Assembly: GCA_965248765.1 (NCBI GenBank)
Contig: CBDFKF010000004.1
Span: 1,301,260-1,365,259 of the forward strand
Length of the DNA stretch: 64,000 bases
Direction: 5' to 3'
Origin: Alphaproteobacteria bacterium
GTDB lineage: Bacteria > Pseudomonadota > Alphaproteobacteria > VGEJ01
The notes under the pieces are model-generated. The model ran no database searches. It was not told the origin of the DNA and saw nothing but the letters and a program-made list of their open reading frames with translations. Shown one piece after another: positions 26,434 through 43,877 of this stretch. Position numbers and translations under genes: made by a program. Position 1 is the first letter of the stretch. Each line of letters begins with the position of its first letter.

Positions 26434-27720
26434 ATGCGGGTCAAGGAAACGACAAAAAACGCCGGCAAGCGGAAGAACGGGATTAGTCGTCGTCGGCTCA
26501 TGGGCACGACGGCAGCGGTGGCGGCCGCCGGAGCCATCAGCGGATTCCCGAACATCGTGCGCGCCGCCGACGATCTACGCACCGTTGGTCTCGGCGTCAG
26601 CATCATCAACGAGATCCAGGGCCAAGCGTCGGAGGATCTCGGATTCGGTGTGCGCGGGCAGGCGCTGGGTTACGGCGCCATGATCGGCAAGATGCTCAAT
26701 CAGAACGACCAGTACGACATCGCCGAGGGCTACTACAACGACATGGACATCATGTGGCCCGCCGGCGTTTGGCAGCCGATCGATACGCAGCGGATCACGG
26801 AATGGGACAAGATCACGAACCTTTCGAAGACGGGCCGACTCACGCCGGAGTCCAACCCCGGCCAGGGCGATGCGCCATTCCGCCAAATGTGGCTCGACGA
26901 CAACGGCAATCGCGTAGCGGGACCGTCCCGCTACGTCACGATGGTTCCGGGGTGGCACAATGCCGATTCCATTGGCTACAACCCGGACGAGACCGGTCGC
27001 AAGATCGAAAGCTGGGCGGAGCTGTTCAGCGACGATTTCAGAGGCCAGGTGGCGCTTCTGAACGTGCCTCAGATCGGCGTCATGGATGCCGCCTTGGGCG
27101 TCGAGGCGTTGGGCCTGCTCACATTCGGCGACAAGGGCAACATGACCACGGAAGAGATCGATTTCCTGATGGATTTCCTGATCGAGAAGAAGAAGGCCGG
27201 GCATTTCCGGGCCTTCTGGGAGACCTTTGGCCAGTCGGTCAACCTTATGGTCAGTGGCGAGGTCGCACTGGAAAGCATGTGGTCACCGGCGGTGACCGCC
27301 ATCAAGGCCGAGGGCGTGCGGTGCGTCTATGCCTTCCCCAAGGAGGGCATGCGCGGCTGGCACGGCGGTTGCGCCATCTCCGCCGAGGTCACCGGCAAAG
27401 CGCTCGATCAAGCCTATGAGTACATCAACTGGTGGCTGAGCGGTTGGCCCGGTGCGTTCGTGGCCCGTCAGGGTTATTACATGTCGGTGCCCGAGAACGT
27501 GCGGAAGCATGTCGAGCCGGACGAGTGGGACTATTGGTACGACGGGAAAGCCGCCGCCAGGGACCTGCCCGATCCGTTCGGCACCATCATCGTGCCTGAA
27601 GGCGAGATCAGGGACGGCGGATCCTACTGGGACCGGTTCGGCAACATCGCCGTTTGGAACTCGGTGATGGACGAGAACGACTATTTGGTGAAGCGCTGGA
27701 CCGAGTTCCTGACCGCCTGA
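26434..27720 (+). CDS. ABC transporter periplasmic substrate-binding protein (PotD/PotF-like) with Tat signal
   Basis: The twin-arginine signal is 'SRRRLMGTTAAVAAAGA'. It has the SBP fold and is followed by two permease genes. Confidence 0.8.
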   Translation: MRVKETTKNAGKRKNGISRRRLMGTTAAVAAAGAISGFPNIVRAADDLRTVGLGVSIINEIQGQASEDLGFGVRGQALGYGAMIGKMLNQNDQYDIAEGYYNDMDIMWPAGVWQPIDTQRITEWDKITNLSKTGRLTPESNPGQGDAPFRQMWLDDNGNRVAGPSRYVTMVPGWHNADSIGYNPDETGRKIESWAELFSDDFRGQVALLNVPQIGVMDAALGVEALGLLTFGDKGNMTTEEIDFLMDFLIEKKKAGHFRAFWETFGQSVNLMVSGEVALESMWSPAVTAIKAEGVRCVYAFPKEGMRGWHGGCAISAEVTGKALDQAYEYINWWLSGWPGAFVARQGYYMSVPENVRKHVEPDEWDYWYDGKAAARDLPDPFGTIIVPEGEIRDGGSYWDRFGNIAVWNSVMDENDYLVKRWTEFLTA

Positions 27721-27876
27721 TCACACAGCTTTTCGATCTTCTTCACCATGGGACGGACGCGGCTGGGCCGCGTCCGCCCCTGTTTCCTTGAACGCCGCCC
27801 ACTTGCCTTTGCCGCAGGACCTGGGCAGGGACGTTCCCCGATCGGCGATCCATTCCGCTAGGTCCGCCACACGCAG

Positions 27877-28857
27877 ATGACCGAGTCCTTGCACCATTCG
27901 GGCCTCATCGGCACACAACCGCTCGCTCCTGCCGACGTCGCCGCCGCTGCCGGAAAGAAGATCCGACGACAGCCGGGGTTCTCCACGGGCTGGCTGATCG
28001 CGCCGGCAAGCCTATGGCTGCTCGTGTTCCTGGTCGTTCCCCTTGCCAGCATCGCGATTTTCAGTCTGTGGACGTCCACCGATCAGGGCATGTCCGCCGA
28101 ATTCACGCTCGGACACTACGGTGCCTTTTTCGAGGCCGAGGGCTTCTTCGATCCGTCCACGGACGAATTCCTCACCCCGAACGTGTTCAACAGGACGTTG
28201 GCGACCACGGTCATTTTCACTCTCGAGGTCATGGTCCTGTGCCTTCTGGTGGGCTATCCGATTGCTTACTTTCTTGCGATGCAGGTGCAATCGTTCAAAT
28301 GGCAGATGGCGTTCTTCCTGCTGGCCCTAGTGCCGTTCTGGACAAGTTATCTCATTCGCGCTGTTGCTTGGCTACCGATGCTGGGACGACGCGGGCTCCT
28401 CAATAACGTGCTGATCAGCCTGGACATCATCGACAAGCCGACGAGCTTTCTCTTGTATTCGGAGTTCAGTTACACGATGGCGCTGGTCCAGCTGTACGTG
28501 GTGCTGTCCGTCGGCCCGATCTTCTTCTCGCTGGCCAAGATTGATCGCGCGATTCTCGAAGCCGCGCGCGACATGGGCGCCTCGGCCTTCAGCATTTTCC
28601 GCGAGATCATCCTTCCGCTGTCGCTGCCGGGCGTCGCCATCGGCATGGTCTTCATCTTCGTCATGATCATGGGCGAGTTCGCGACGGCGGTCGTGGTGTA
28701 CGGCGGTAAGACCTCGACCACTGGGACCGTCATCCTCAATTACTACGCCATCGCCAACTACCCGTTCGCCGCGGTGAACGCGGTCATGCTGATGCTGGCG
28801 ATGATGATCGGGGTTGTCGTCATCTTGCGTATCGTTGACATCCGTAAGGAGCTTTGA
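27877..28857 (+). CDS. ABC transporter permease (PotB-like)
   Basis: It has 6 TM helices and the EAA-type loop 'LEAARDMGAS..IFREIILP'. Confidence 0.8.
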   Translation: MTESLHHSGLIGTQPLAPADVAAAAGKKIRRQPGFSTGWLIAPASLWLLVFLVVPLASIAIFSLWTSTDQGMSAEFTLGHYGAFFEAEGFFDPSTDEFLTPNVFNRTLATTVIFTLEVMVLCLLVGYPIAYFLAMQVQSFKWQMAFFLLALVPFWTSYLIRAVAWLPMLGRRGLLNNVLISLDIIDKPTSFLLYSEFSYTMALVQLYVVLSVGPIFFSLAKIDRAILEAARDMGASAFSIFREIILPLSLPGVAIGMVFIFVMIMGEFATAVVVYGGKTSTTGTVILNYYAIANYPFAAVNAVMLMLAMMIGVVVILRIVDIRKEL

Positions 28858-28858
28858 G

Positions 28859-29686
28859 GTGGCCCGCTGGTCCCGGGAGAGGAAGCGCAAAGCCGCGGTG
28901 AAAACCGGCTTTAGCGCCTACTACGGGATCTTTCTGGTGTTCATTTACGGACCGATGATCGCCATGTTCATCCTCTCCTTCCAAGGAAAGAGAGGCGGCA
29001 CCAGCTTTCCGATGCGAGGCTTTAGCTTCTACTGGTGGGAGAAGCTGTTTCAGCCCTCGTCGGTCGGCGACCTCCAGGGTGCCATGTTGCGCTCGCTGAT
29101 CCTCGCGCTGGTCGTGATGGTAATCACGGCGTTGTTCTCGACCATGCTGGCGATGGCCTTCCGCAAGCGCTTCTTCGCCTCGGATGTCCTGTTCTACACG
29201 GTCATGGCCGGCCTCATGGCGCCCGGAATCCTGCTCAGCTTGGGGCTCGCAACGCTCTTGCGCGAGCTCGGCATCCCGCCGGCATGGTGGTCCTCGGCGC
29301 TCGGCGTGCACGTCGTGTGGACGCTGCCGTTCGGCTTCCTCGTCATGATGGCAGTGTTCAATCGGTTCGACGCCAGCCTCGAGGAGGCGGCGCGCGATAT
29401 GGGGGCCGATGAGTGGACGGTCTTCAAGGAGGTAACCTTGCCCCTGATCACCCCCGGCATCGTCGCCGCGGGGCTGTTCGGGTTTACGCTGTCCTACGAT
29501 GAGTTCGCCCGCACCACCCTTCTTGCCGGCGAGTACAACACGCTACCGCTCGACATCAACGCATCGATGACCCAGCGCATCCGGCCGACCCTGTTCGCGC
29601 TGGGCACCGCATCGACGCTGTTCTCGCTTTCGATGATCGCCCTGTTCGTGGTGATCTATACCATCCTCTACCGACGCTTCCGCTGA
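28859..29686 (+). CDS. ABC transporter permease (PotC-like)
   Basis: The probable GTG start is right after the upstream stop. It has the EAA loop 'LEEAARDMGADEWTVFKEVTLP'. Confidence 0.75.
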   Translation: MARWSRERKRKAAVKTGFSAYYGIFLVFIYGPMIAMFILSFQGKRGGTSFPMRGFSFYWWEKLFQPSSVGDLQGAMLRSLILALVVMVITALFSTMLAMAFRKRFFASDVLFYTVMAGLMAPGILLSLGLATLLRELGIPPAWWSSALGVHVVWTLPFGFLVMMAVFNRFDASLEEAARDMGADEWTVFKEVTLPLITPGIVAAGLFGFTLSYDEFARTTLLAGEYNTLPLDINASMTQRIRPTLFALGTASTLFSLSMIALFVVIYTILYRRFR

Positions 29687-29689
29687 CGG

Positions 29690-30775
29690 TTATTCATCAA
29701 GCAGCACGCCGGCCTCGGCGGGCCAGCATATCGTCTCTGATTCGCCCATGTCGTAGACGCGATCGGAGATGTTGCGGTGCTGCTCGACATGGACAAAGAA
29801 GCCGGGCGCGACCTCGAAGACGTCGGTTTCGAGCGAGCCACGAAACTCGGTGGTGATGTAGCGCCCTTCCACGCGGTTCGCCATCTGCGGCTGTTCGCCG
29901 GTGTGCATGGAATCCGCCCGCACCGAGAAATACACCTCCTCGCCGCTCCGCACGCGACGGACGTGCTCGGGCACCTGGACGTAGAACAAGTTGCCATCGG
30001 ATTCGACGAACACTATCGAGCCGCTGCGCGATCTAATGGTCCCTTTGATGAGATTGTTGTTGCCAATGAACTCGGCCACGAATCTGGTCCGCGGATTGTT
30101 GTAGATCTCGCGTGAGGTCCCGACCTGCTGGATCAGCGCATCGCTCATGACGATGACTTTGTCGGCCATCGACATCGCCTCCTCCTGGGAGTGAGTAACC
30201 ATGATGAAGGTGATGCCGAGCTCGCGCTGGATCTTCTTGAGCTCGATGATCATGGATTGGCGAAGGTTGTAGTCGAGCGAGCCGAGCGGCTCATCCAGAA
30301 GCAGGACCGTGGGTCTGCTGATCAGCGCTCGGCCCAGCGCCACGCGCTGCTGTTGCCCGCCGCTGAGATCGCCCGGGTGGCGCCGGGCTAACTCCGTGAG
30401 CCCGACCATTTCGAGCATGTCCGAGACAGGCTTGGCTCGCTCATCCTTCGACTGACCCTGCATCTTGAGGCTGAATTCGACGTTCTCGGCCACCGTTCGG
30501 TGAGGGAACAACGCAAAGCTTTGGAACATCATCGAGGTGTCGCGCTGCGCCGGCGGGAGGTCTGTCACGTCCCTGCCGGCGATGAAGATCTTGCCGGATG
30601 TAACCTCCTCGAGTCCGCCGATCATCCGCAGCGTGGTCGTCTTACCGCAGCCGCTCGGGCCGAGCATCGCGACAAACTCGCCATGCTCGATCTCAGCGTC
30701 GAAGTCGATCACCGCCCGGACGTCGCCCGGGAACGTCTTGTTGACCCTGGTCAGAACGACGTCGTATTCGGGCAT
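29690..30775 (-). CDS. ABC transporter ATP-binding protein (PotA-like, C-terminal TOBE domain)
   Basis: It has Walker A 'GPSGCGKTT', the signature 'LSGGQQQRVAL' and Walker B 'LLLDEP'. It is encoded on the opposite strand from its permeases. Confidence 0.85.
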   Translation of the reverse strand: MPEYDVVLTRVNKTFPGDVRAVIDFDAEIEHGEFVAMLGPSGCGKTTTLRMIGGLEEVTSGKIFIAGRDVTDLPPAQRDTSMMFQSFALFPHRTVAENVEFSLKMQGQSKDERAKPVSDMLEMVGLTELARRHPGDLSGGQQQRVALGRALISRPTVLLLDEPLGSLDYNLRQSMIIELKKIQRELGITFIMVTHSQEEAMSMADKVIVMSDALIQQVGTSREIYNNPRTRFVAEFIGNNNLIKGTIRSRSGSIVFVESDGNLFYVQVPEHVRRVRSGEEVYFSVRADSMHTGEQPQMANRVEGRYITTEFRGSLETDVFEVAPGFFVHVEQHRNISDRVYDMGESETICWPAEAGVLLDE

Positions 30776-30793: not shown

Positions 30794-33208
30794 CTAGTCC
30801 GCTGTACGCGCCACCGCCCTCAGGAGGCTCCACACCGTCCGGAACGGGACACCCCTTAGGTCGTCCCGCTCGCCGAGGTCCTTCAGCAGACCGACCGCAC
30901 GGATCATCGCCTCGTCCTCGCCGGCCGCCTCGGTCAGGGTCGCGACGGCCTGAGCGAGCGGCACTTCCTGCTCATCTCGACCGCCCATCAACTGGCTCAC
31001 CAGCACATCGAGCTGTTCATAGGCCTGCTGGACGGAGCCGCCATCGTGAGGTCGGCCGAAGATGCCGCGCACGCCATTTGCAGCGAACCGCCGGCGCAGG
31101 CCCTCGGGCATCGACTGCGCCACCCCCTCGAGGACCTCGCCGATGCCGAAGCCAGAGGTGAACATGCCGCGGACGGTATCCATGGTGCCATCGCCGCCAC
31201 CGTACATCCGGATCTGGGCGTTCTGCAGGGCATTGCCCATGGCTTTGGCCTGGTCGATGTGAATGTCCCGCTCAGCCTCGATGTAGAGCTTCGACAGCTC
31301 GAGAAACGTAGCCGCCTCGTTGTATTTCTTGAGCGCGGCTGCCTTGGCCTCCATACCCGTGGCCTCGGCCTCCAACTGGCGCTGGGAGTTTGCTACGCGA
31401 AGCGCTTCCACCTCCATGTCGGCCCGCCCCACGGCCCCCGCCTCGCGTTCGATGCCCTCAGCGCTGATTTTCTGCGCTTCGCTCGTCGCGGCGGCCCTCA
31501 CCCGTGTTGCTTCGGCCTCTAGCTCAGCCGCCTGGCGACGGGCCTCAGCCTGAGTCACCATGTGCATACGGTTGATCTCGGCCTTTCTCTCCTCCTCGAT
31601 ACGCTGCGTGTCCGCGAGCTTCTCAGCCTCGATGCGCTCGATCTCCTTGGCGCGCTCGGCATCGGCGACTGGGCGCACTGATTCCATCTCGTGCTCCGCA
31701 CGCTCCCTCTCGGCGGTGGTCTTGAGACGCTCGGCCTCCGTTTGCTCGAGTTCGCGGGCCTTCTCCACCAGTACTATCTCGCGATCACGCTCCTCAAGCT
31801 CACGGGCAAGAAAGCGCCGGATGTCGACCCTCTCGCGCTCCTGCTCCTTAGCGATAAGAGCGATCTCGCGTTCGCGCTCCTCGAGTTCGACCGCCAGCGT
31901 CCGGCGCACCTCGGCACGCCGTAGAGCCTCCTCCTTGGAGAGCTCCTCCTGTTGCACCTCCCAGCGGCGGTCCAGCACGTAGCGCTGCTTCTCCCCGAGA
32001 ATTCGTGCCTTCTCGTTGGCAACCTCTTGCTCTTGCTGGGCCTCGGCAACCGCCTCGTCCCGGTCCATGTCCAGCGTTGCGAGCGTCGTTTCCAGCTTAC
32101 GCTGCCGCATCGCCAGGGTGGACCCCTCGGTCGCTTCGTGACGAGCGTTGCGCGCCGTCTGTTCCTCGGCGGCAACAGCCGTCGCACGCTGGATCTCGAC
32201 CAGCTCGCGCTCCTTCTCCTTTTGGATGAGCTGGATTTCCTTTTCCTTCCTCTCTTGCTCCAGGGCAAGAGACTTCTGAATTTCGATGGCCTCGCGCTTC
32301 AGTGCTTCTTCCGTCAGCGCAACTTCGCGGCCGGTACGCTGGCGCTCCAGCGCCACGTCATTGCCGATCTCCTGTTCCTCGACCGCCATTCGCTGATTGA
32401 GGACAAAGACCTGCTTCTCGCGCACCTGTTGGGCCTGCTCATTCGATACAGCTTTGTCCTGATTGGCGCGAGCGAAGGCCTCCTGTCGTTCGATCTCAAG
32501 CAGCTCCAGCTGGGTATCCAAGTCCTTTTGGCGGATGGCGACGGCGGTCCGCTTCTCGGTATCGTGCACCACGCGGCGCGCGCTGGACGTGATGTCGGTG
32601 ATGATCTTCAAACCCTCGGCGTCGAACACGTTGTCGGCCTTGAAGTACTCCTTACCGGTTTGTTCCATCGTGACGATCGTCACCTCTTCGAGGATTAGGC
32701 CGTTGGTCTTGAAGCTCTCTAGCACGCCAGCCTTCATCGCCTGGGCAAAAGCATCCCGATTCTCATGGAGCTCGGACAGCGTTTTAGTGGCGGCATAGCT
32801 GCGCAGCGCACTCACCACCTTGGCTTCGAGTAAGTTTCGCACCTGCTCGGAATCGAACGTCTTGTCGCCCAGGGTTCGGCTTGCGGTTAGCAGGTTCTCA
32901 ACCGTGTGTCCGACGTGCGTATAGAGCTCGGCGGTGATATCGACACGGATCTTGTCCGACGTCAGGATCGCCTGATCGCGCGATCGGCTCACGATCAGCT
33001 TGATCGTCTCCAGCGACACCCACGTGATCTCGTGGAAGACCGGAAGAACGATAGCGCCCTGCCCGAGGCACACCTTGGTGCCCAGCGAGCCGGTGCGGAT
33101 GAACCCCATGTTCGATGGCGCCCGCTTGTAGACCCAGATCGAGAGGATGTAGATAATCGCGATAACGATGATCGCGATGACCAGCGCAATGATCACGTAT
33201 TCGAGCAT
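30794..33208 (-). CDS. flotillin-like SPFH/band-7 protein with very long E/A/R/K-rich coiled coil
   Basis: It has an N-terminal TM ('IIALVIAIIVIAIIYILSIWVY') and SPFH domain, then ~450 aa of repetitive coiled coil. The 804-aa length exceeds the typical ~500-560. Confidence 0.75.
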   Translation of the reverse strand: MLEYVIIALVIAIIVIAIIYILSIWVYKRAPSNMGFIRTGSLGTKVCLGQGAIVLPVFHEITWVSLETIKLIVSRSRDQAILTSDKIRVDITAELYTHVGHTVENLLTASRTLGDKTFDSEQVRNLLEAKVVSALRSYAATKTLSELHENRDAFAQAMKAGVLESFKTNGLILEEVTIVTMEQTGKEYFKADNVFDAEGLKIITDITSSARRVVHDTEKRTAVAIRQKDLDTQLELLEIERQEAFARANQDKAVSNEQAQQVREKQVFVLNQRMAVEEQEIGNDVALERQRTGREVALTEEALKREAIEIQKSLALEQERKEKEIQLIQKEKERELVEIQRATAVAAEEQTARNARHEATEGSTLAMRQRKLETTLATLDMDRDEAVAEAQQEQEVANEKARILGEKQRYVLDRRWEVQQEELSKEEALRRAEVRRTLAVELEEREREIALIAKEQERERVDIRRFLARELEERDREIVLVEKARELEQTEAERLKTTAERERAEHEMESVRPVADAERAKEIERIEAEKLADTQRIEEERKAEINRMHMVTQAEARRQAAELEAEATRVRAAATSEAQKISAEGIEREAGAVGRADMEVEALRVANSQRQLEAEATGMEAKAAALKKYNEAATFLELSKLYIEAERDIHIDQAKAMGNALQNAQIRMYGGGDGTMDTVRGMFTSGFGIGEVLEGVAQSMPEGLRRRFAANGVRGIFGRPHDGGSVQQAYEQLDVLVSQLMGGRDEQEVPLAQAVATLTEAAGEDEAMIRAVGLLKDLGERDDLRGVPFRTVWSLLRAVARTAD

Positions 33209-33290: not shown

Positions 33291-35603
33291 TTAGGCGATC
33301 GGCCACTCGCCGTTCCCAGATGGCCGCTCGCCAAAATCGAAGACCGGTAGGTCCTTGCGATTGCGCTGCATGGTCCTGCGTAGCTCTTGCGTTGCTCTTT
33401 GATCGATGTCAAAGCGGCGGCCAACAAGCACTACGCCATACTCGTTCCTTGCCGTTTCCGACGTCATCAGGTTGCGCGCAACGTCGTTGCGAACGAGCAC
33501 CGAGTCGCGCTCCAGCGCATCGCCCCAACCGCCACCGCCAGCAGTGCGGAAGACGATGCGATCGCCGCGCACCACCGTGACGTTGTCGACCTTGGAGGGC
33601 AGCGGCTCGCGGCTGCCGTCCTCGCGCACCAGCCATTTCTCTGAGCACTGGCCCGGCTTACCCCCGAGAATGCCCCAGGGTTGGGTGAGATGCCGGTCGT
33701 CGTGGATGGAGATCTCGCCCGCCTCGAGCAGCAAGTAGACCTTTTCGATGCCATTACCGCCCCGGTGTTTGCCGGCGCCGCCGGTGTCGGCGACGCTGCC
33801 ATAGCCCTCGATCACCATCGGGTAATAGCTCTCGAGGTACTCGGACGGGATGTTCTCGAACAGCGGCCACCAGGAGTGACCGTCCAGGCCATCGCCAACT
33901 GGGCGGCCGGGGATGCCACCATAGAGAATCTCCATCAGCTGGAAGCTCCGCCCGTCGCGATCGACCCCCGAGTACAGGAAGTGCGGGCTGGAGCCGTAGC
34001 CGGCCGCGGTGGCCATCTCCGGCGCGTGGCGGCTGAGGGCACCGCCCAGCACGTCGAACTGCCGCGAGAGCGCGTGGGTGCGCCCGCCTAGAGCTGCCGG
34101 GAACTTCGGCCGCACGAGCGATCCCTCAGGCATGGTGACGTGGATGAGGTCGTAGAAGCCGTCGTTGAAGAGGATCTGGGGGTCGAACACCATGATCATG
34201 TAGACCCCAATGAACATCTTAAACATGCCCTCGTGGAGGTAGAAGTTGATGGGCCCTGGCGACTGCGCTGCCGTACCGGTCCAGTCGAAATAGGCGTGCT
34301 CCCCCTCGCGCCAGACCGTGAGTTTCATCTTAAACGGCCCGTTGCCGCGGCCGTCGTCATCGACGTAGTCCTCGAACGATTGCGGCTCCTCCGGCAGGTT
34401 CTGGACGATCAGCTGGCGCATGGCGCGGTTGGTACGCTCGAGCAGGGCCTCGCAGGCCTGCATGTAGACCTCTTTGCCAAAGCGCTCGCAGATCTCGACC
34501 ACCCGCCGCTCGCCAGCGCGGCTTCCAGCGATGATCGCCATGAGGTCGCTATAGTTCATCTCCGGCGTGCGGGTGTTGTTCATGATCAAGTTGACCGCCG
34601 AACTGTTGAGCTCGCCCTTCTCGTAAATCTTAATCGGCGGGATCTTCAACCCCTCGCCGAAGATCGAGGTGGCGGCGGTCGGCATGCTGCCCGGCACCGG
34701 TCCACCGACGTCCATGACGTGGCCGAACATGGAGCTGAATCCGACGAGACCCCCTTCGTAGAAGATCGGTATCAACACCATCCAGTCATTGATGTGGCTG
34801 ACCGCCCCGCCGCATTTGTAGGGATCGCTCTGCAGGATCACGTCGCCCGGGTGGAGTTCGAATTGCTCGGCTGCCAGCATCTCCGAGACGTACGAGCCGA
34901 ACTGGCCAACGATCATGCGGCCCTTGGGATCGGTGATCATCGGGAACTCGTCATGCTGCTCGCGGATGACCGGCGACATCGCGGAGCGAAACAACACCGC
35001 GTCCATCTCGTGCCGGGCGTTCCGTAAAGCGTTCTCGACGAGGTCGAGCGTAATCGGGTCCAAACGCCCGCCCCTGCGCGGGCCGGGCTCGGCCGCGACC
35101 GGCGCGGCCTCAGGTCCACCGTTGGTGGGCAACGTCCGCGCTCCGGCCGGTGTGGGCGGCACATCGGTGGGCGCACGCAGCGTGGGAGGATCGCCGAACA
35201 GCTCCGCGCACTTCTTGAGCGCATCCTCAGTTGCGCGCTGCAACGCAGCGCCCTCGTCGCCGTGAATGCGCGCTGATCCGAACTGCGATTTCGTGACACC
35301 GTCGACCTCAAGCTTGCAGAGGACGGTGACCATGCGGCTGTCAGCGCGCCGGTTAACCACTTCGCACGACCAGCCACTGCCGAATTTGGCATTGAGCAGC
35401 GCGGCGACGCCGTTGCTTCCCTCGGTGTCCATTGCCTCGATGCTGGCTGAGGCCAGATCCTGCTCGGTCGGCGGGCGACGCGTGACGCCGAGCAAACCGA
35501 AGTCACGGTTCTGGGCATTGAGGATCTTGTCGAACTGCTGCTTGTTCGCCTTCAGCAGATCGTCGAGCGAGACGCTGCTGGTAGGGGGGGGCACATCCGA
35601 CAT
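33291..35603 (-). CDS. hyuB: hydantoinase B/oxoprolinase-family subunit (HyuB, copy 1) with ~175-aa N-terminal extra domain plus Pro-rich linker
   Basis: The HyuB core begins at 'LDPITLDLVENALRNARHEMDAVLFRSAMSPVIREQHDEFPMI', equal to the start of copy 2. Residues 1-~175 are additional: a globular ~125-aa part plus 'DPPTLRAPTDVPPTPAGARTLPTNGGPEAAPVAAEPGP'. The SD 'AAGAGGAG' precedes the ATG at 35603. Confidence 0.85.
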   Translation of the reverse strand: MSDVPPPTSSVSLDDLLKANKQQFDKILNAQNRDFGLLGVTRRPPTEQDLASASIEAMDTEGSNGVAALLNAKFGSGWSCEVVNRRADSRMVTVLCKLEVDGVTKSQFGSARIHGDEGAALQRATEDALKKCAELFGDPPTLRAPTDVPPTPAGARTLPTNGGPEAAPVAAEPGPRRGGRLDPITLDLVENALRNARHEMDAVLFRSAMSPVIREQHDEFPMITDPKGRMIVGQFGSYVSEMLAAEQFELHPGDVILQSDPYKCGGAVSHINDWMVLIPIFYEGGLVGFSSMFGHVMDVGGPVPGSMPTAATSIFGEGLKIPPIKIYEKGELNSSAVNLIMNNTRTPEMNYSDLMAIIAGSRAGERRVVEICERFGKEVYMQACEALLERTNRAMRQLIVQNLPEEPQSFEDYVDDDGRGNGPFKMKLTVWREGEHAYFDWTGTAAQSPGPINFYLHEGMFKMFIGVYMIMVFDPQILFNDGFYDLIHVTMPEGSLVRPKFPAALGGRTHALSRQFDVLGGALSRHAPEMATAAGYGSSPHFLYSGVDRDGRSFQLMEILYGGIPGRPVGDGLDGHSWWPLFENIPSEYLESYYPMVIEGYGSVADTGGAGKHRGGNGIEKVYLLLEAGEISIHDDRHLTQPWGILGGKPGQCSEKWLVREDGSREPLPSKVDNVTVVRGDRIVFRTAGGGGWGDALERDSVLVRNDVARNLMTSETARNEYGVVLVGRRFDIDQRATQELRRTMQRNRKDLPVFDFGERPSGNGEWPIA

Positions 35604-35615
35604 GGCTAACTCCTC

Positions 35616-37691
35616 TTACGTTCCCGAGGCGACCGAGCGCGGATCGTCCTGGGGGTAGATCAAAATGTTCAAGTACTCGTCGACGTCCCCCACGTGATCG
35701 GGATGGATAACCGTAGTCGTATCATCCTGCAAGATGACCGCCGGGCCCGCCACGCGATTGCCTGCGCCCAGCCGTTTGCGATCATAGATGTTGGCGGTGA
35801 GAAAGCTGCCGTCGAAGTAGACGCGATGCTGATCGACCACCGCCGCTGAGCCATCCTCGGCGTTCTTCTCAGAGCGCGGGATATTGACTTTCTCCACCTG
35901 TCCCGTCCCTACCGCCCGTAGATTGACGAGTTCGACCGGCGCATTTAGCCGGAAACCATAGAGCCGTTCATGCGCGGAGCCGAAGCGACTCTCGACATCA
36001 CCGAGGCCGCCGTTGGTGAGCGCATCCGGGTTGATGTCCAGCGAGAACTCATAACCCTGACGGAAGTACCGCACGTCGACCTGGTATTGCAATTCTTGAC
36101 GGGATTCGTCGACGCCTTCCTCGCGAAGCCACGCCTTCGCCTCGCTGCCGAGCTCCGTCAGCAGCTCGCTCACCTGGCCTGGATTGGTGTCGGCAATGTT
36201 CCGAATGAACGTGCGCGCGAACTCGTTTTTGACATCGGAGTAAAGAAACCCGAGTGCTGACAGGACCCCCGGGGTTGTCGGCACGATGACCGGGAAACAC
36301 CCCGCCAAGCGAGCAACGGCGTTACCGTGCATGGGTCCCGCCCCGCCAAAAGCCACCAAGGCAAAATCACGCGGGTCCAACCCTTTTTGCACGCTGACCA
36401 GGCGTAGCGCGCCCAACATATTCTCGTTGACGATATCGAGGATGCCTTGGGCGGCCTGATAGACGTCAAGGCCGAGCGCGTGTCCGATCTTTGCAACGGC
36501 GGTCTCCGCTGCGCCTGCGTCCAAGGCCATCTCGCCGCCCAGCAAGCTCGGCGGTAGGTGCCCGAGAACGACGTTGGCATCGGTCACCGTGGGCAGCTCG
36601 CCGCCGCGGCCATAGCACGCGGGCCCCGGCACCGCCCCCGCGCTCTCGGGCCCCACTCGTAGCGCACCGGTCATCGGCACATGCGCTATGGAGCCACCGC
36701 CGGCGCCCACGCTGTGCACCTCGACCGACGGGACCTTCACCGGATAGTAGCCGAGCGAGGTCTGACGGGAGATCGTGGGCTTGCCATCTTGTATTAGCGA
36801 GACATCGGTCGAGGTGCCGCCCATGTCAAAGCCGAGGGCGTTCGGCTGGCCCGCCAGCGAGGAGATGAAGGCCGCGCCGGATACCCCGCCCGCCGGACCC
36901 GAAAGCATCGTATGGACGGGAAATTCGCTCGCGCGCTGCACGCTCATCAGCCCGCCGTCGGAGCGTACGATGTTCACATGGGGCGAGAATTGGATCTCGT
37001 TCAGCCTTTGCTCGAACCCCTCCAGATACCGACGTACGCTGGGTCGTACGTAGGCGTTCATCACGGCGACCAACGTGCGTTCGTATTCCCGGAACTCCGG
37101 CAGGATCTCGGACGAAAGAGAGACCGGCAGCTCGGCATCCTGCTCGCGAATCAAGGCCTTCACGCGCTCCTCATGTTGGGAGTCGGCGTAGGAGTGGAGG
37201 AGTGAGACAGTAATCGACTCGACCCCCAATTCGAGCAGTTCGCGGATCGCCGAGCGTGCCTGTCCCTCGTCCAACGGTTTGATGACGTCGCCGCGCGCTG
37301 TTATTCGCTCGGAAACGCCGCGTGTGGCTTCGAGGTCTGCCATCGGCTCGGGCTTGATCATCGTGATCCAACCCGCCAGCGGACCCGGCGTTTGTGAGCG
37401 CGCCAGGTGCAGGACCTGCTCGAAGTTCTCCGTCACCAGCAAGCCGACCCTCGCACCTTTACCCTCGAGGACGATGTTGGTCGAGACCGTGGTTCCGTGT
37501 AGCAGCGTCCGAATATCCGGCGGCGCAACGCCCGATTCGGCGACGATCTTTTTGATGCCCGTGAGAATGCCCACAGACTGATCTTCCGGCGTAGACGGCG
37601 TTTTCAGCAGGTGAATGTCACCGGTGGCTTCGTTGAACAACAAGAGATCCGTGAAAGTGCCACCGACGTCGATGCCGAGGCGGCTGCTCAT
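35616..37691 (-). CDS. hyuA: hydantoinase A / N-methylhydantoinase A-family subunit (HyuA, copy 1)
   Basis: It starts 'MSSRLGIDVGGTFTDLLL' and is 691 aa, the typical HyuA architecture. Confidence 0.85.
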   Translation of the reverse strand: MSSRLGIDVGGTFTDLLLFNEATGDIHLLKTPSTPEDQSVGILTGIKKIVAESGVAPPDIRTLLHGTTVSTNIVLEGKGARVGLLVTENFEQVLHLARSQTPGPLAGWITMIKPEPMADLEATRGVSERITARGDVIKPLDEGQARSAIRELLELGVESITVSLLHSYADSQHEERVKALIREQDAELPVSLSSEILPEFREYERTLVAVMNAYVRPSVRRYLEGFEQRLNEIQFSPHVNIVRSDGGLMSVQRASEFPVHTMLSGPAGGVSGAAFISSLAGQPNALGFDMGGTSTDVSLIQDGKPTISRQTSLGYYPVKVPSVEVHSVGAGGGSIAHVPMTGALRVGPESAGAVPGPACYGRGGELPTVTDANVVLGHLPPSLLGGEMALDAGAAETAVAKIGHALGLDVYQAAQGILDIVNENMLGALRLVSVQKGLDPRDFALVAFGGAGPMHGNAVARLAGCFPVIVPTTPGVLSALGFLYSDVKNEFARTFIRNIADTNPGQVSELLTELGSEAKAWLREEGVDESRQELQYQVDVRYFRQGYEFSLDINPDALTNGGLGDVESRFGSAHERLYGFRLNAPVELVNLRAVGTGQVEKVNIPRSEKNAEDGSAAVVDQHRVYFDGSFLTANIYDRKRLGAGNRVAGPAVILQDDTTTVIHPDHVGDVDEYLNILIYPQDDPRSVASGT

Positions 37692-37820: not shown

Positions 37821-38348
37821 ATGGCACAAGAATCTGTAGGCCTGCGCCCACCAAGATTCCTGATAGTCGTTGTCGGGATCATTATACTATTGATCTTTCT
37901 TTACTTTTATCGTCCATTCGAAACTTATTTTACCGAAAGTATCCAGGACATTGACTCGTCCAACATTGTTTTTTGGTTTGCTTCGCTCATTGGAGTACTC
38001 GGCTATGTCGTCTCCCATTGGCGGTCTTTTCGTCACAACATTTTCCGCAGCGTCACAGACCTCGACATCGAAACTCTCGTCTTCGACACGCTGCAGATCG
38101 CCATTTTGATCGCGGTCATCTTTTGCGCAGGTGCGATCCTTCAAGAAATCGAGATGCTGGCTGAGCACCTCATCGAACGGGGTACCATCATCGGGCCATT
38201 TTTTGGCGGCAGATTGCTGTCAATCATACTGCTGTTCCTCCTAGCGGTCGCCTTCTACCTCCTACACCGCATGGTGCGCGCCTTCCGCATCGGGTGGCGT
38301 CCCGACAGGGTACCCCCGCGGGCTTCCTCCGCTAGCGGCCGCTCTTGA
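37821..38348 (+). CDS. small membrane protein P2 (paralog of 24262..24726)
   Basis: The 175-aa protein has 'LIFLYFYRPFETYF' and 'SNIVFWFASLIGVLGYVVSHWRSFR'. It is divergent from hyuA copy 1. Confidence 0.5.
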   Translation: MAQESVGLRPPRFLIVVVGIIILLIFLYFYRPFETYFTESIQDIDSSNIVFWFASLIGVLGYVVSHWRSFRHNIFRSVTDLDIETLVFDTLQIAILIAVIFCAGAILQEIEMLAEHLIERGTIIGPFFGGRLLSIILLFLLAVAFYLLHRMVRAFRIGWRPDRVPPRASSASGRS

Positions 38349-38397: not shown

Positions 38398-39501
38398 CTA
38401 GCTAGCCGCGGCGCCCGCCTCAGCCTCGAACGGATGGCGGGCGATGAAGTCGTCGGCGATCTCGTCGAACGTGCACCAGCGGGCCGCGGCGTGGCTCGAA
38501 ATGTACTCGATCATGCGCTCGATCACCGACAATACCTGCGGTCGGCCTGATATGTCGGGATGGATCGTCAGCGTGTACACCGCATAATCCATCTCGCGAT
38601 AGACCCAGTCGAACTGATCGCGCCACCACTCCTCGATGTCGCGCGGGTTCACCCAGCCGTGGCTGTTGGGTACGGTCTTCATGAACATCAGCGGCGGCAG
38701 GTCATCGAGGTACCAACTGGCCGGAATCTGAACCATGGGCACCGTGGTGCCGAGCTCCATCGGCTTCATCCAAGTATCAGCCGGTTTCCCGTAGTCGATG
38801 AGCGTCCACACCTCGTTGATTCGCGTCCAAAAAGGCGTGAAGTCGTTGTGCATCTGGCTGTGGTCGTACTTGATGCCACGATCCAAAAGGAGATGCGGTG
38901 TCGCTTGGCTCATTTCCCACCAGGGTGCGACATTGCCCGTCGGCCGGCGACCAGAGATGTCCGTGATCAGGCCGATGCACTTGTCGAGGATGTCCGCCTC
39001 CTGATCCGGGGTCATCTGCACGGGGTTCTCGTGGGTGTAGCCGTGCAGACCGATCTCGTGTCCTTCATTGGCCACCCGCCGCATCATGTCCGGCCAGGTC
39101 TCTATCGTGTGTCCGGGAATGAACCAACTCGTGCTCAGCTCGTAACGCTTGAACAATTCCAACATGCGCGGGGTACCGACCTCGGCGGAAAAGACGCCGC
39201 GGCCGATGTCACTTGGCGAGTTGCCGCCCCCATACGAGCCGATTTGCCCGGCAACGGCATCGACGTCGACGCCGATGCCGCAGAGAATTTCCTTGGTGCC
39301 GCCGCCGGCCGCAGGCCTCGCCGCTGGCCGCCCTTCCGGCCGGCTTGCACGCGGTCCCGCACCGGCACGCGTCGCCCCAGACGGTGGCGAAGCCGTTGGC
39401 CGCGGGCGGTATCGTTCACCGATGACATCGTCGGGGCTGGACGCCGCGGATGCGGATCGCCGTGGATGCCCACGGAACTCGGAGTCGGAACGATCGCTCA
39501 T
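38398..39501 (-). CDS. polysaccharide deacetylase (NodB-homology) family hydrolase
   Basis: 'WFIPGHTIETWPDMMRRVANEGHEIGLHGYTHE' gives the NodB motifs. The start is at 'MSDRSD', preceded by GGGAGGTGA, and the N-terminus has a low-complexity Ala/Pro/Arg stretch. Confidence 0.7.
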   Translation of the reverse strand: MSDRSDSEFRGHPRRSASAASSPDDVIGERYRPRPTASPPSGATRAGAGPRASRPEGRPAARPAAGGGTKEILCGIGVDVDAVAGQIGSYGGGNSPSDIGRGVFSAEVGTPRMLELFKRYELSTSWFIPGHTIETWPDMMRRVANEGHEIGLHGYTHENPVQMTPDQEADILDKCIGLITDISGRRPTGNVAPWWEMSQATPHLLLDRGIKYDHSQMHNDFTPFWTRINEVWTLIDYGKPADTWMKPMELGTTVPMVQIPASWYLDDLPPLMFMKTVPNSHGWVNPRDIEEWWRDQFDWVYREMDYAVYTLTIHPDISGRPQVLSVIERMIEYISSHAAARWCTFDEIADDFIARHPFEAEAGAAAS

Positions 39502-39712
39502 CGTCTCACCTCCCGTGCTGATCGTTGACTTCTTGGCGCGCCGATCTCGGCTCAGCCCGCCTCCGTTTGATACATCCCGCCCCGGCATCGATCAACCCGG
39601 ATGACGATCGGCTTCGAGGCGTGCCGACCCACGGTGGGCTTCGTTGATCGCCAGCTGACCACCGGCTATCGTCCCCGGGTGCTAGCCAGACAGCGCGCGC
39701 CGGGAGGACGAC

Positions 39713-40441
39713 ATGGACGATTGGCAATCACACACGCGCAGGGACTACGAGCGCAAGGGCTTCGCGGTCCACGCCGGCTACGGTGCCAAGCCGGTCCTAC
39801 TGCTCGTCGATTTCATTAACGGCTTTACCGATCCTGCGACACCGCTCGGCGGCGATCTCACAAGCCAGATCGCGGTAAGCAAAGAACTCATGGCCGCGTT
39901 CCGCGCCAATGGTTTGCCGGTGGTGTACACGACCATCGCTTACAAGCCGGATCTCAGCGACGCCGGCATGTGGATCAAGAAGATCCCGTCGCTGGAAATC
40001 CTGGCGAAGGGCTCGCCCATGGTCGAGATCGACGAGCGGCTCCGTCCCCTGCGCGGCGAGCGCGTGGTGGAGAAAAAGTTCGCGAGCGCCTTCTTCGGGA
40101 CCAATCTCGATGCGTATCTTCGCGGCCAGGGCATTGATACGATCATCATGACGGGGTGCACGACCAGCGGCTGCATTCGCGCCTCGGCCGTGGATTCAAT
40201 CCAGTACGGGTACTACACGATCGTCGTCGGGGACGCGGTCGGCGACCGCACCGAAGGCCCGCACGAAGCCAAACTATTCGATATCGACGCCAAGTATGGC
40301 GACGTTGTCGCCGGTATTGCAGTGTTCGATTACCTGCGGTCACTGATGCCCTCGGGAGCGTTTGCCGCAAGAGCCGACTACGATTTCCGCCGCTGGTGGA
40401 GCGACGATTCAAGCACGGCGGAGGACCGGCGCTATGGCTAA
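39713..40441 (+). CDS. isochorismatase-fold cysteine hydrolase (N-carbamoylsarcosine amidase-like), copy 2
   Basis: 'VLLLVDFINGF' and 'IIMTGCTTSGCIRASAVDS' are paralogous to 22276..22899. Confidence 0.75.
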   Translation: MDDWQSHTRRDYERKGFAVHAGYGAKPVLLLVDFINGFTDPATPLGGDLTSQIAVSKELMAAFRANGLPVVYTTIAYKPDLSDAGMWIKKIPSLEILAKGSPMVEIDERLRPLRGERVVEKKFASAFFGTNLDAYLRGQGIDTIIMTGCTTSGCIRASAVDSIQYGYYTIVVGDAVGDRTEGPHEAKLFDIDAKYGDVVAGIAVFDYLRSLMPSGAFAARADYDFRRWWSDDSSTAEDRRYG

Positions 40442-41039: not shown

Positions 41040-41888
41040 TTAGCTAGTCTGCTGGTCCGCCTCGATGCGCTGCCAGAGGTCGCGGATCATGTCCTTCATC
41101 ATCAGCGTCTCTTCCCAGCGGTCGGAAAGCTCGTAGCCGTCGGCGCCGGTTATTGCGTATTCGCGCGGGCCTAGCTCGCACAAGAAGGTCAGTGTCGCGT
41201 CTGCGTGCGCGCGTCGCCGCCAGCTGCGGAACCCGTATTCCCACCAATCCATGAACAGATCCACCCAGTCCTTGTGATGGCGGAAGCTGATCTGGATCTG
41301 CACCTGCTCACGGCTGGCGACCCGCCCGTGAAACCCCCAGCAATTGTCGAGGATGCGGTGCATCAGTGCGTGGTTCTCATCGGAGATCGGCCAGGCAAAC
41401 TCACGCCCGACGAGAAAGTGCGAGATATCGCCGGTGAGGCGAAGATCGGGGAAACGATCTAGGAGATGGAGAGTGAAGAATAGATCCGTCGTCATCCGAT
41501 CCCGGTGGGTCTCGATATGCACCGGGAACGGCGCGTCGGCGGCGATGCGCTGCCAGCCCTCGACGATCGGCACCGCCTCTTCCAGGGCATAGGGCTTGAC
41601 GTCAGGTTGCACGTTGAGGTGGTCGATCACAGGTCCGAACGCTGCCACCTGCTCGATCATCGGCTCGAGCTCCTCGGCGGTCTTCGGAAAGCAGAACGCC
41701 GCGCCCGTCATCCCATTCGTCCGTAAGAATTCGGTTACGACCTCTGCTGTCGAGGGATCATGGAAGCCGACGCCGTTGAACCCGGCATCGCGGATCATCT
41801 CAAGCTTCTGATCGAGCGGCCATTCCTCGCCGTCGGGCTGCCGCCGCTCCATCGCCCACATGGATTGATAGACGAGCAATTTCTGCAT
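41040..41888 (-). CDS. sugar phosphate isomerase/epimerase (xylose-isomerase-like TIM barrel)
   Basis: The 282-aa protein has the typical length and pattern 'GFNGVGFHDP...HIETH' for this family. Confidence 0.6.
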   Translation of the reverse strand: MQKLLVYQSMWAMERRQPDGEEWPLDQKLEMIRDAGFNGVGFHDPSTAEVVTEFLRTNGMTGAAFCFPKTAEELEPMIEQVAAFGPVIDHLNVQPDVKPYALEEAVPIVEGWQRIAADAPFPVHIETHRDRMTTDLFFTLHLLDRFPDLRLTGDISHFLVGREFAWPISDENHALMHRILDNCWGFHGRVASREQVQIQISFRHHKDWVDLFMDWWEYGFRSWRRRAHADATLTFLCELGPREYAITGADGYELSDRWEETLMMKDMIRDLWQRIEADQQTS

Positions 41889-41911: not shown

Positions 41912-42775
41912 TCAGGCGTCCAGCTCGACCTCTGACTTCGCAGTCAGCGTCACTTGATCGTGGGGATGATCCTCAGGATGCATGAAACGCCTAGCCCTGC
42001 CGGCACGCACGTGACCGCGCTCCTTGACCGCGCTGTCCGGCAGTCTCTTGAGCGGCGTGTAGCGCGGCATGTGGTGCTCTTTGTACGGGTCGTTGCGTGC
42101 AGCGTTGTAGCAGCATAAGAGGACGTCGCGGTTACGATCCGATGTGTTCTGGTCCGAACCGTGCAGCGTGTTGCAGTGCAGGAAGAGCGCATCGCCCGGC
42201 GCAAGCTCGCCATGGACGACATCGAGCATCTTCAGCGCGTGCTCGACGCGCTCCGGGTCGGCCGTGGTCTGCCCTTCCACCAGCATGTGGTCCTGGCGCC
42301 CCATCTGGTGTGAGCCCTTGAGCACCTGCAGACAACCGTTGTCACGGTTGGCATCGGTGATCGCGATCATCACGCTCAACATGTGGGGGAATAGGTTGCC
42401 GTTGAAGTACCAGTAGCCGTAGTCCTGGTGCCAGTTCCACGCACCGCCAGTGCGTGGTGCCTTCAACGTCAGCTTCGAGTGATAGTGGTACACCTCGCCG
42501 CCGAGCAGGAGCCCGACGCCGTCGACCATGCGCTGGCAGCGAGCGATCGCCCCGAAAAGATCATCGCCAGGCTCCGTCCATAGGATGGTGTCCGTGGTGC
42601 GCCCCTGGCCGTCGAGGATCGCCATATTGTTGGCATGATCGCCAATCCCCTCGTCCTCCAAAAGCGCGTGCCGCATCAGCTCGGCTTCTTCCTCATCGAA
42701 GAAGGCCCGCTTGATCAAGAACCCATCCTCATTGAAACGCGCCGCCTCTTCGGCGGTCACCCGGGGATAGCCCAT
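41912..42775 (-). CDS. PhyH-family Fe(II)/2-oxoglutarate dioxygenase (ectoine-hydroxylase-like), copy A
   Basis: 'WNWHQDYGYWYFNGNLFPHMLSVMIAITDANRDNGCLQVLKGSH' is the His-x-Asp...His facial triad context of the PhyH family. Confidence 0.75.
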   Translation of the reverse strand: MGYPRVTAEEAARFNEDGFLIKRAFFDEEEAELMRHALLEDEGIGDHANNMAILDGQGRTTDTILWTEPGDDLFGAIARCQRMVDGVGLLLGGEVYHYHSKLTLKAPRTGGAWNWHQDYGYWYFNGNLFPHMLSVMIAITDANRDNGCLQVLKGSHQMGRQDHMLVEGQTTADPERVEHALKMLDVVHGELAPGDALFLHCNTLHGSDQNTSDRNRDVLLCCYNAARNDPYKEHHMPRYTPLKRLPDSAVKERGHVRAGRARRFMHPEDHPHDQVTLTAKSEVELDA

Positions 42776-42807
42776 AACATCGCTCCCTTGAGGCGCAGCC
42801 GCGCCCC

Positions 42808-43671
42808 TCAGTTTCCCAGCTCAGCCTCCGATTTCACGGTCAGGCTGACTTGCTCGTCGGGGATGCGGTCGGGGTGCATGAAGACCCGAGCGTTGCCAGC
42901 GCGAACATTGCCGCGCTCCATGACCGCGCTGTCGGGCAACTTGTCCAGCCGCGTATAGCGCGGGAAATGGTGCTCCATGTACGGGTTGTTCCGCGCCGCG
43001 TTGTAGCAACACAGGAGCACGTTACGGTTGCGGTCTGAGGTGTTCTGGCCGGAGCCGTGCAGCGTGTTGCAGTGTAGGAATAGCGCATCCCCCGGCGATA
43101 GCTCGCCGTGGACGACATCGAGAACCTCAAGCGCGTGCTCGACACGCTCGGGATCGGCCGTTGTTTGGCCCTCCACCAACATGTGGTCGAGCCGGCCCAT
43201 GTGGTGCGAGCCCTTGAGCACCTGGAGACAGCCGTTCTCACGGTCGGTTTCGCTGATCGCGATCATCACGCTCAGCATGTGCGGGAACAAGTTGCCGTTG
43301 AAGTACCAGTAGCCGTAATCCTGGTGCCAATTCCACGCCCCGCCGGTCCGCGGCGCCTTGAGCGTCAGCTTGGAGTGGTAATGGTAGACCTCGCCGCCGA
43401 GTGCGAGCTCAACGCCATTGACCATGCGCTCACAGCGCGCGATCGCACCGAACAGGTCATCACCGGGCTCGGTCCACAGGATCGTATCGGTGGTGTGACC
43501 CTGGCCGTCGAGGATCGCCATGTTGTTGGCATCGTCACTGATGCCCTCGTCCTCGATGAGCGCCCGCTGCATCAGCTCGGCCTCTTCGTTGTCGAAGAAG
43601 GCCCGCTTGATCAGAAACCCATCCTCGTTGAAACGCGCCGCCTCGTGGCCAGTCACCGTCGGGTAGCCCAT
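42808..43671 (-). CDS. PhyH-family Fe(II)/2-oxoglutarate dioxygenase, copy B
   Basis: It is ~85% identical to copy A over 287 aa. The start is taken at 'MGYPTVTG'. Confidence 0.75.
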   Translation of the reverse strand: MGYPTVTGHEAARFNEDGFLIKRAFFDNEEAELMQRALIEDEGISDDANNMAILDGQGHTTDTILWTEPGDDLFGAIARCERMVNGVELALGGEVYHYHSKLTLKAPRTGGAWNWHQDYGYWYFNGNLFPHMLSVMIAISETDRENGCLQVLKGSHHMGRLDHMLVEGQTTADPERVEHALEVLDVVHGELSPGDALFLHCNTLHGSGQNTSDRNRNVLLCCYNAARNNPYMEHHFPRYTRLDKLPDSAVMERGNVRAGNARVFMHPDRIPDEQVSLTVKSEAELGN

Positions 43672-43877
43672 CGCATCGTCTCCCTGCCGCCAGGCCATCG
43701 AGCGCCGTTGGCAGCGCCCAATGATATCGTGCCGCACGCCACGCTATGACGCAAATTGCCTACGTCACGGCATCGTGGCGAGCCTGTTGTTGACTCTTTG
43801 GCCTTGTTGCGGAACAGTTCGGCGCCGGAATAACCGCTTCGGCAAGGACTTTCATAGGGATGCCCCAGGGAGGGAGT

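Follow-up and report, generated by a model that had tools for sequence, protein, structure and literature searches.

The window analyzed here is a 64,000-nucleotide (nt) stretch of a genome from an Alphaproteobacteria bacterium (lineage VGEJ01; GenBank assembly GCA_965248765.1, contig CBDFKF010000004.1, positions 1,301,260 to 1,365,259), and it contains two hyuA/hyuB gene pairs for hydantoinase/oxoprolinase-type enzymes. As judged from sequence, HyuB copy 1 is a natural fusion protein that is conserved under purifying selection, in which an N-terminal helix, a small folded core, and a Pro/Ala-rich linker precede a complete catalytic domain. The core is very probably, in identity as well as in descent, a diverged and truncated homolog of the core of the Rad52/Rad22 family (Pfam entry PF04098). 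We propose, tentatively, that this Rad52-like module may have been exapted as an assembly or tethering device. The fold and the enzyme are each known; the conserved architecture that joins them, and its context, are undescribed.

HyuB copy 1 is the 770-amino-acid (aa) product of a minus-strand open reading frame (ORF; 33291..35603). Its C-terminal 592 residues hold a complete Hydantoinase_B domain (PF02538, residues 182 to 695, covering positions 1 to 518 of the 519 in the profile), with hyuA adjacent. Because this match begins at residue 182, about 178 in-frame residues precede the catalytic core; they are encoded by nt 35070..35603, ahead of the conserved LDPITLDL that opens the core. A sequence-only reading of the window had already pointed to this long extension, and the motifs that it quoted are indeed found there, as are the strong Shine-Dalgarno sequence and the start right after the hyuA stop. 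The minus strand reads ACG TAA GAGGAG TTAGCC ATG, where the TAA stop of hyuA (35616-35618) overlaps the Shine-Dalgarno sequence AAGAGGAG and the ATG of the fused hyuB lies 6 nt beyond. The identical 770-aa ORF was called on a near-identical European Nucleotide Archive contig (P0175). HyuB copy 2 (51495..53411), which the same reading had starting directly at VDPITLD, very nearly does so, with just a 17-residue leader (MPAKIIEHNSKKFKKVK) ahead of this motif.

We then looked for relatives of the extension by scanning one genome for each species with a sequence pattern. We found 49 loci, all in metagenome-assembled genomes (MAGs), from Xanthobacteraceae, many uncultured Alphaproteobacteria, Rhodospirillales, one Ruegeria, and one Acidiferrobacteraceae. 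The junction between the N-terminal domain and HyuB was in frame in 44/49 loci despite variable linker lengths: 38 loci have a single uninterrupted ORF of 747 to 784 aa spanning the N-terminal domain and the HyuB core, and in 6 the frame is kept and the gene is cut by a contig end or a later frameshift. One locus was uninformative, and four were frameshifted, in long-read assemblies where hyuA or hyuB was broken too. Among the 120 closest homologs of the HyuB core (at least 79% identity), 81 had 760 to 779 aa and about 100 had at least 740 aa. Besides one clade of uncultured Alphaproteobacteria, the fusion occurs in SAR324 and Acidiferrobacteraceae MAGs. Other extended HyuB proteins, which the sequence-only reading had thought worth seeking, proved to be widespread in public metagenome data, labeled "N-methylhydantoinase B" or "hydantoinase B/oxoprolinase family protein."

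The ratio of nonsynonymous to synonymous substitutions (dN/dS; Nei-Gojobori, 339 pairs from 34 coding sequences) was 0.10 for the N-terminal helix, 0.21 for residues 37 to 63, 0.10 for the folded core, 0.51 for the linker, and 0.09 for the HyuB part. Together with the kept frame, these values indicate that the extension is translated and selected and that the linker is a real spacer. The contention that the extension is expressed is borne out by the 44 in-frame loci and by selection on the helix and core as strong as that on the enzyme. That it is instead an ORF-calling artifact, with translation starting at the HyuB core, has next to no chance of being right: short forms do occur in some public annotations (P0262, 605 aa; P0186; P0189), but the first covers an intact longer ORF with the domain and the last is half of a split gene, and the long start has its strong Shine-Dalgarno sequence, with the frame kept over variable linkers and a dN/dS of 0.10.

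Several database entries that seemed to contradict the fusion were rejected. In a SAR324 MAG, the NCBI annotation calls HyuB from an internal Met (P0262), leaving a 555-nt "intergenic" gap; the locus itself (L059, 1622..3997) is an uninterrupted 791-aa ORF including the Rad52-like domain, in which Ala replaces an otherwise invariant Cys. P0262 is thus a late start call and no unfused relative, and neither is P0189, which is the 3' half of a gene split on the contig that also carries P0004. Stand-alone N-domain proteins (P0001 to P0025) were discarded as evidence for a separate gene, since they are gene fragments or result from frameshifts in error-prone long-read assemblies. An apparent Rosetta-stone fusion of the isochorismatase-like enzyme with the paralog of the extension (P0098) reads as frameshifted sequence. 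In L001, hyuA and hyuB are split too, and the ORF tail "...NSTRFRSI" before the stop is the +1 frame of "RLDTVSLDLI." Frameshifts in long-read MAGs (L001, L010, L030, L045, L046; P0003, P0010, P0011, P0098) split this gene, hyuA, and hyuB, and they populate protein databases with spurious "stand-alone" N-domain proteins and the spurious isochorismatase-paralog fusion.

We then analyzed the parts of the extension. Two AlphaFold2 (AF2) models, built from 20-sequence and 41-sequence alignments, were mutually consistent. They predict a helix at residues 13 to 34 (predicted local distance difference test [pLDDT] score of 87 to 89 in the better model), coil or helix at residues 37 to 63 (pLDDT 43 to 71), a core composed of a helix (64 to 74), three strands (78 to 88, 91 to 100, and 103 to 112), and a second helix (117 to 136), all at pLDDT 94 to 98, and disorder from about residue 140 to 178. 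According to these models, the folded domain has about 75 residues and not 125. The globular domain of about 125 aa on a Pro/Ala-rich linker that had been described from the sequence therefore keeps its linker, and the single globule gives way to a folded part of about 75 aa plus a helix and a poorly ordered segment. The N-terminal helix of the fused forms has a hydrophobic moment of 0.52, which was matched by 1% of shuffled sequences. In the segment from 37 to 63, our alignment showed that R43 is invariant in fused forms and that P44, T46, D49, L50, S52, and S54 are nearly so, and the linker differs in sequence and length among relatives.

The relationship of the core to Rad52 was evaluated from both directions. 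PF04098 (Rad52_Rad22) was the sole Pfam family above noise for the extension; it matched residues 64 to 138 of the window protein with profile positions 35 to 128, and the score of 20.3 bits (E 5.6e-4) is precisely the gathering cut-off. It matched just 5/20 relatives at E<=1, and taken alone, this sequence match is marginal. For the reverse search, we trimmed 13 family members and built a profile from them; among 1.84 billion cluster representatives, 682 proteins matched it at E<=1e-3, including fused HyuBs and stand-alone relatives. The same search also matched proteins of 175 to 320 aa at profile positions of about 62 to 137 with E values of 1e-11 to 1e-12, and all 12 of those scanned in Pfam were true PF04098 members (E down to 7e-18). 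A close homolog, P0196, bears a precomputed PF04098 match. The core shares 28 to 37% identity with PF04098 proteins, six invariant positions (L70, W78, V94, G109, A124, and C132), and the motifs LN..FG..W.(F/S)E(V/I)V, K.QFG, and AL(K/R)KCA. The modeled core shows a three-stranded beta-sheet traversed by an alpha-helix, and the 15 top Foldseek matches of the predicted model in the PDB were all RAD52 or Mgm101. Sequence searches of the PDB with a single sequence and with a 20-sequence profile gave nothing relevant, and PHROGs yielded one weak match only (E 0.012), to a family of unknown function.

These searches settle much of what the sequence-only reading had said about the extension. The likeness to Rad52 and Sak that it had noticed by eye holds as homology, but not as a complete annealing fold, since the core is truncated and has no hairpin. 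Its further suggestion of an undescribed domain family falls away, because the core belongs to PF04098, though barely caught by Pfam. It had named a lack of profile or structure matches and of conservation in relatives as grounds for giving up the idea; on these points we found significant Rad52-family matches and conservation. There is a very slim chance that the likeness is convergent, the core being a generic alpha-beta-beta-beta-alpha fold of the kind seen in double-stranded RNA-binding domains (dsRBD), S5, or HPF. Against this, the PF04098 match, with no other Pfam family matching, is evidence independent of fold, the reverse profile reaches PF04098 members at E 1e-11, and the motifs LN..FG..W.(F/S)E(V/I)V and AL(K/R)KCA are common to it and to Rad52-like proteins. 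In the structural comparison, identity to Rad52 proteins was 20 to 23%, versus 16% or less for nearly all other high-scoring folds, and dsRBD-like domains (dsrm and relatives) were not the best match in structure and sequence.

We next compared the core with the features that Rad52-type annealing requires. In surveys that cover over 10,000 members, the Rad52 fold figures as a dedicated single-strand-annealing module, and the hairpin and sheet are the motifs essential for DNA binding and annealing, per Al-Fatlawi et al. (PMC11783212). No beta-hairpin was predicted in either AF2 model, although a hairpin that forms solely in the oligomer could escape prediction. In the alignment, the extension lacks the hairpin motif IKQRxGxGG..L.YVE of bacterial Rad52-like proteins, as well as the post-helix GxGLxLY segment and the rest of the N-terminal DNA-binding domain. 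The last residues of the fused domain, ...CAELFG, are followed directly by the linker; the paralogs end at ...CAEML. The location of the Rad52 hairpin is taken by the segment from 37 to 63, and its R43 may be a relic of the hairpin arginine, the counterpart of Rad52 R55. The core helix carries a K/R pair, which we take to correspond to K152/R153 of human RAD52. Both positions are basic in 11/11 of the Rad52-like proteins compared; in the fused forms, the first is basic in 76% and the second in about 30%, and in 23/31 stand-alone paralogs the first is Ala. The window protein has KK at this pair, R123 is kept in 86% of the fused forms, and position 130 is basic in 76%.

The genomic context is not that of an annealing protein either. 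The fused gene is surrounded by genes for hydrolases, a flotillin-like protein, and an ATP-binding cassette (ABC) importer, with nothing phage-like and no repair or recombination genes among the cluster genes. No relatives of the domain were found in IMG/VR contigs, GenBank phages, or PLSDB plasmids, and PADLOC defense models matched none of the N-terminal domain, its paralog, the flotillin-like protein, and the small membrane protein described below. Given what is missing in the hairpin, in the post-helix segment, and in the context, we did not file the core as a single-strand annealing protein (SSAP), and DNA binding has likely been lost.

The window also encodes a free-standing 178-aa paralog of the extension. 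The paralog gene is served by a separate GGAGGA Shine-Dalgarno sequence and shares 8 nt, at its start, with the stop end of the isochorismatase-like gene, to which it is translationally coupled. The paralog has the same layout of N-helix, disordered stretch, and Rad52-like core, the latter with an insertion of about 30 aa, and no variation occurs at L17, N20, Q23, F24, and D25 among the fused forms, the window paralog, and its near-identical relative P0026. We found the paralog 3' of the isochorismatase-like gene in every related locus that reaches that far (L004, L016, L018, L028, L034, L035, L045, L052, and L053). A word-indexed search with the paralog gave only a 98%-identical copy, and the family was visible by exhaustive profile search; several of the stand-alone paralogs sit on contigs of about 1 kb, without informative context.

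Variants were also found that consist of the helix without the core. About 18 of the 120 closest HyuB homologs (680 to 723 aa; for example, P0183, P0180, P0272, and P0288) have the N-helix and the Pro/Ala linker and no beta-beta-beta-alpha core, and their loci retain the membrane protein, HyuA, HyuB, Band_7, and ABC ATPase genes. Since lineages that deleted the core keep the helix, the helix is the most persistent element of the extension. A 287-aa marine-metagenome protein (P0147; L057, 93..956) has a Rad52-like core without the N-helix, followed by a C-terminal Cds6_C NTF2-like domain, and represents a further non-SSAP architecture for a Rad52-like core.

The enzyme itself appears ordinary. 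By homology, the fused HyuB and its HyuA form an ATP-dependent hydantoinase/lactamase. The nearest solved relative of HyuB is the N-methylhydantoinase 7hk5 (E 3e-70), followed by the "Hydantoinase" chain 6yra_B (E 1.7e-59), from an entry that we take to be the structure of caprolactamase CapAB. No characterized specificity was reached in NCBIfam, where CapB scored 243 bits against an equivalog cut-off of 1000 and ApcD 119 bits against 1500.

Finally, we examined the gene neighborhood, with counts taken over 50 related loci. The cluster is the same throughout, with the order small membrane protein, then HyuA, the Rad52-like::HyuB fusion, the flotillin-like SPFH protein, and the ABC ATPase; coordinates are collected in Table 1. 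The flotillin-like (Band_7) gene lies downstream of the fused hyuB in 44 loci, i.e., in every locus long enough, it encodes a protein of 800 to 990 aa among the loci, and it is also present in L052, L058, L059, L060, and L062. At the three extension-less HyuAB pairs that we saw (window copy 2, L052, and L060), the Band_7 neighbor was missing in every case (3/3). The flotillin-like protein contains a very long Glu/Ala/Arg-rich coiled-coil, and the place of its gene between hyuB and an ABC ATPase appears to be an unusual setting for a flotillin-like gene. The convergent genes for the binding protein and two permeases recur in the divergent locus L062. The small membrane protein belongs to no Pfam, NCBIfam, or PADLOC family, and it is duplicated in L062 (19754..20263). 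The polysaccharide-deacetylase-family hydrolase was hit by TIGR03212 far under the cut-off. No bacterial microcompartment (BMC) shell or encapsulin families were detected with Pfam among the neighbors in the window or in related loci.

Table 1. Features of the fused hyuB gene and of its surroundings in the window
Feature	Coordinates	Strand	Basis or remarks
ABC importer, solute-binding protein and two permeases, convergent	26434..29686	+	Pfam SBP_bac_8, two BPD_transp_1
ABC importer ATPase, PotA/UgpC-like, TOBE domain, last operon gene	29690..30775	-	Pfam ABC_tran, TOBE_2; NCBIfam; 43 loci
Flotillin-like SPFH/Band_7 protein, 804 aa, directly downstream of fused hyuB	30794..33208	-	PF01145 E 2.3e-14
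Fused HyuB, catalytic core (Hydantoinase_B/oxoprolinase family)	33291..35069	-	PF02538 E 7.6e-148
Fused HyuB, Pro/Ala-rich disordered linker, residues 139-178	35070..35189	-	pLDDT <60, varying length
Fused HyuB, Rad52-family core, residues 64-138 (beta-beta-beta-alpha, 75 aa)	35190..35414	-	
Fused HyuB, semi-conserved, poorly ordered segment, residues 37-63, RP.T..DL.SAS motif	35415..35495	-	AF2, alignment
Fused HyuB, N-terminal amphipathic helix, residues 13-34, SLDDLLKANKQQFDKIL...	35502..35567	-	AF2 helix, conservation
Fused hyuB, start codon (35601-35603) and Shine-Dalgarno GAGGAG overlapping hyuA stop	35601..35617	-	Direct sequence reading
hyuA, partner subunit	35616..37691	-	Pfam Hydant_A_N, Hydantoinase_A, Hydant_A_C; 50/50 loci
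Small multi-pass membrane protein, 175 aa, divergent from hyuA, motif LLIFLYFYRPFETYF	37821..38348	+	48/50 loci, same position
Polysaccharide-deacetylase-family hydrolase, distantly PuuE allantoinase-like	38398..39588	-	PF01522; 44 loci
Isochorismatase-family amidohydrolase, BiuH/RutB-like	39713..40441	+	PF00857 E 2.6e-36; NCBIfam; 39 loci
Free-standing paralog of the extension, 178 aa	40434..40970	+	tblastn; hmmsearch E 1.2e-45 to family profile
ZnuA-like zinc-binding protein	45579..46610	-	
Second hyuA/hyuB pair, without extension and without flotillin-like neighbor	49402..53411	+	

Some further genes of the region deserve mention. Genes for CobW-type metallochaperones (cobW) occur in many related clusters, e.g., in L001, L052, and L062; with the ZnuA-like gene of the window, the CobW genes hint that some hydrolase of the cluster needs delivered zinc. 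Near the free-standing paralog are two tandem PhyH-family (phytanoyl-CoA dioxygenase-like) paralogs (41912..43737, minus strand), and adjoining its gene is a 282-aa ORF without a family (41040..41888); none of these is conserved in related loci. Downstream of the second hyuA/hyuB pair, the ORF at 53432..54943 (minus strand) had no Pfam match.

We propose that the Rad52-like module would have given up DNA annealing in favor of protein-protein assembly and tethering; that such a tethering or scaffolding mechanism operates is a possibility to which we give somewhat less than an even chance. The N-helix would act as a docking element, likely for the co-encoded flotillin-like scaffold or for the small membrane protein near the importer, which are the best docking candidates because of their strict co-occurrence. 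The Rad52-derived core would self-associate, or associate with the free paralog, in the manner of Rad52 cores that form rings and filaments. In this way, a flexible leash would gather HyuAB copies at the membrane, beside the importer and at the point of substrate entry.

Several observations weigh against this proposal. No free-standing paralog lies within 10 kb at two loci, the divergent L062 and the helix-only L058, so a hetero-assembly cannot be obligatory (at the other helix-only locus, L060, the upstream sequence extends for only about 2.8 kb, too little to be informative on the paralog). The N-helix of the paralog is not significantly amphipathic. The association with the flotillin-like gene is correlative neighborhood evidence, and any contact between the extension and a protein partner is putative. 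With basic helix residues partly kept and R43 perhaps equivalent to Rad52 R55, nucleic acid binding is conceivable. Net charge of the core had been considered as an argument and was dropped, since it does not separate the family from true Rad52-like proteins.

Among the alternatives, the extension could work inside the HyuAB complex, as an autoinhibitory or gating lid, as a chaperone of alpha2-beta2 assembly, or as a channel to the next hydrolase. A leash of about 40 residues could reach back to the HyuA/HyuB active sites, the extension is co-conserved with HyuA, and HyuA/HyuB-type enzymes are heterotetramers with communicating subunits, as in caprolactamase (PMC8453981). We nevertheless regard such an intramolecular role as unlikely, because a free-standing paralog with the same helix adjoins the gene of a different enzyme, other HyuAB enzymes, including window copy 2, do without the extension, and the strict association is with flotillin-like and membrane-protein genes and not with a special HyuA.

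The domain might, alternatively, still bind single-stranded nucleic acid and couple the enzyme to DNA or RNA, e.g., to hydantoin-type oxidized bases, or autoregulate its own mRNA. It is truly homologous to a fold that binds single-stranded DNA (ssDNA), R123, the basic position 130, and R43 are kept as described above, guanine in DNA oxidizes to hydantoins (PMC12623156), and the closest solved enzyme relative is an N-methylhydantoinase. However, the hairpin essential to DNA binding by SSAPs (PMC11783212) is not predicted and its motif is gone, of the two basic helix positions, the second varies and the first is Ala in paralogs, the cluster combines a solute importer with small-molecule amidohydrolases and no repair or recombination genes, and some lineages dropped the core while keeping the helix, all of which makes retained binding decidedly unlikely. 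In the specific form in which the domain would steer an ATP-dependent hydantoinase to hydantoin lesions of guanine or thymine (guanidinohydantoin, spiroiminodihydantoin, or 5-hydroxyhydantoin) in ssDNA, RNA, or breakdown fragments, we consider the idea very improbable.

Lastly, the N-helix might be the only functional part and the core a relic or inert spacer from an ancient fusion, given that about 18 of the 120 closest homologs lost the core with the cluster otherwise intact. We give this little credence: the dN/dS of the core is like that of the enzyme and five-fold below that of the linker, its pLDDT is high, its invariant positions include the Cys common to Rad52-like proteins, and the separately encoded paralogs keep the core too.

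We then compared this system with known ones. Annealing proteins of the Rad52/Rad22 family (about 190 to 250 aa in P0155, P0144, and P0167) have the hairpin, the GxGLxLY segment, and the helices that follow, none of which is present in the fused core, where in turn the basic helix pair is partly conserved and a new conserved N-helix has appeared. The core is here fused to, or encoded beside, an enzyme, in a metabolic and not a phage or recombination context. Sak of lactococcal phage ul36 is a further example of the PF04098 family, and eukaryotic Rad52 and Mgm101 likewise count among the closest known systems. Like N-methylhydantoinase (7hk5), caprolactamase CapAB (PMC8453981), and 5-oxoprolinase, the fused HyuB has a full Hydantoinase_B domain and an adjacent HyuA gene; unlike the characterized HyuA/HyuB-type enzymes and window copy 2, it has an N-terminal extension, and its clade is unique in having a flotillin-like gene next to it. 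The literature that we searched contained no paper combining Rad52 with hydantoinase, in agreement with the statement of the sequence-only reading that no HyuB with such a fusion was known, nor any combining flotillin/SPFH with hydantoinase.

As a mechanistic analogy only, the extension resembles the encapsulation or targeting peptides of BMC cargo, which likewise join a short amphipathic N-helix through a poorly conserved flexible linker to an ordinary enzyme, with one helix common to more than one protein of the locus. It differs from them in that shell and encapsulin genes are absent, the candidate partner is an SPFH/flotillin protein, and a folded Rad52-like domain lies between the helix and the enzyme.

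Public annotations often conceal this domain under "N-methylhydantoinase B" or remove it through a late start. Behind them, dozens of uncultured bacteria from soil and sea keep, under strong purifying selection, a stripped-down Rad52 core beside or within catabolic enzymes. Were the domain still to bind nucleic acid, it would connect an ATP-dependent hydantoinase with nucleic acids, an outcome more surprising still, and if the lesion-targeting reading were true, it would provide a new enzymatic route for hydantoin lesions and the first Rad52-fold domain delivering a metabolic enzyme. If the module is a protein-assembly device, as we tentatively propose, it would be a clear exaptation of a DNA-repair fold for enzyme organization and would offer a rare handle on what bacterial flotillin-like proteins recruit.

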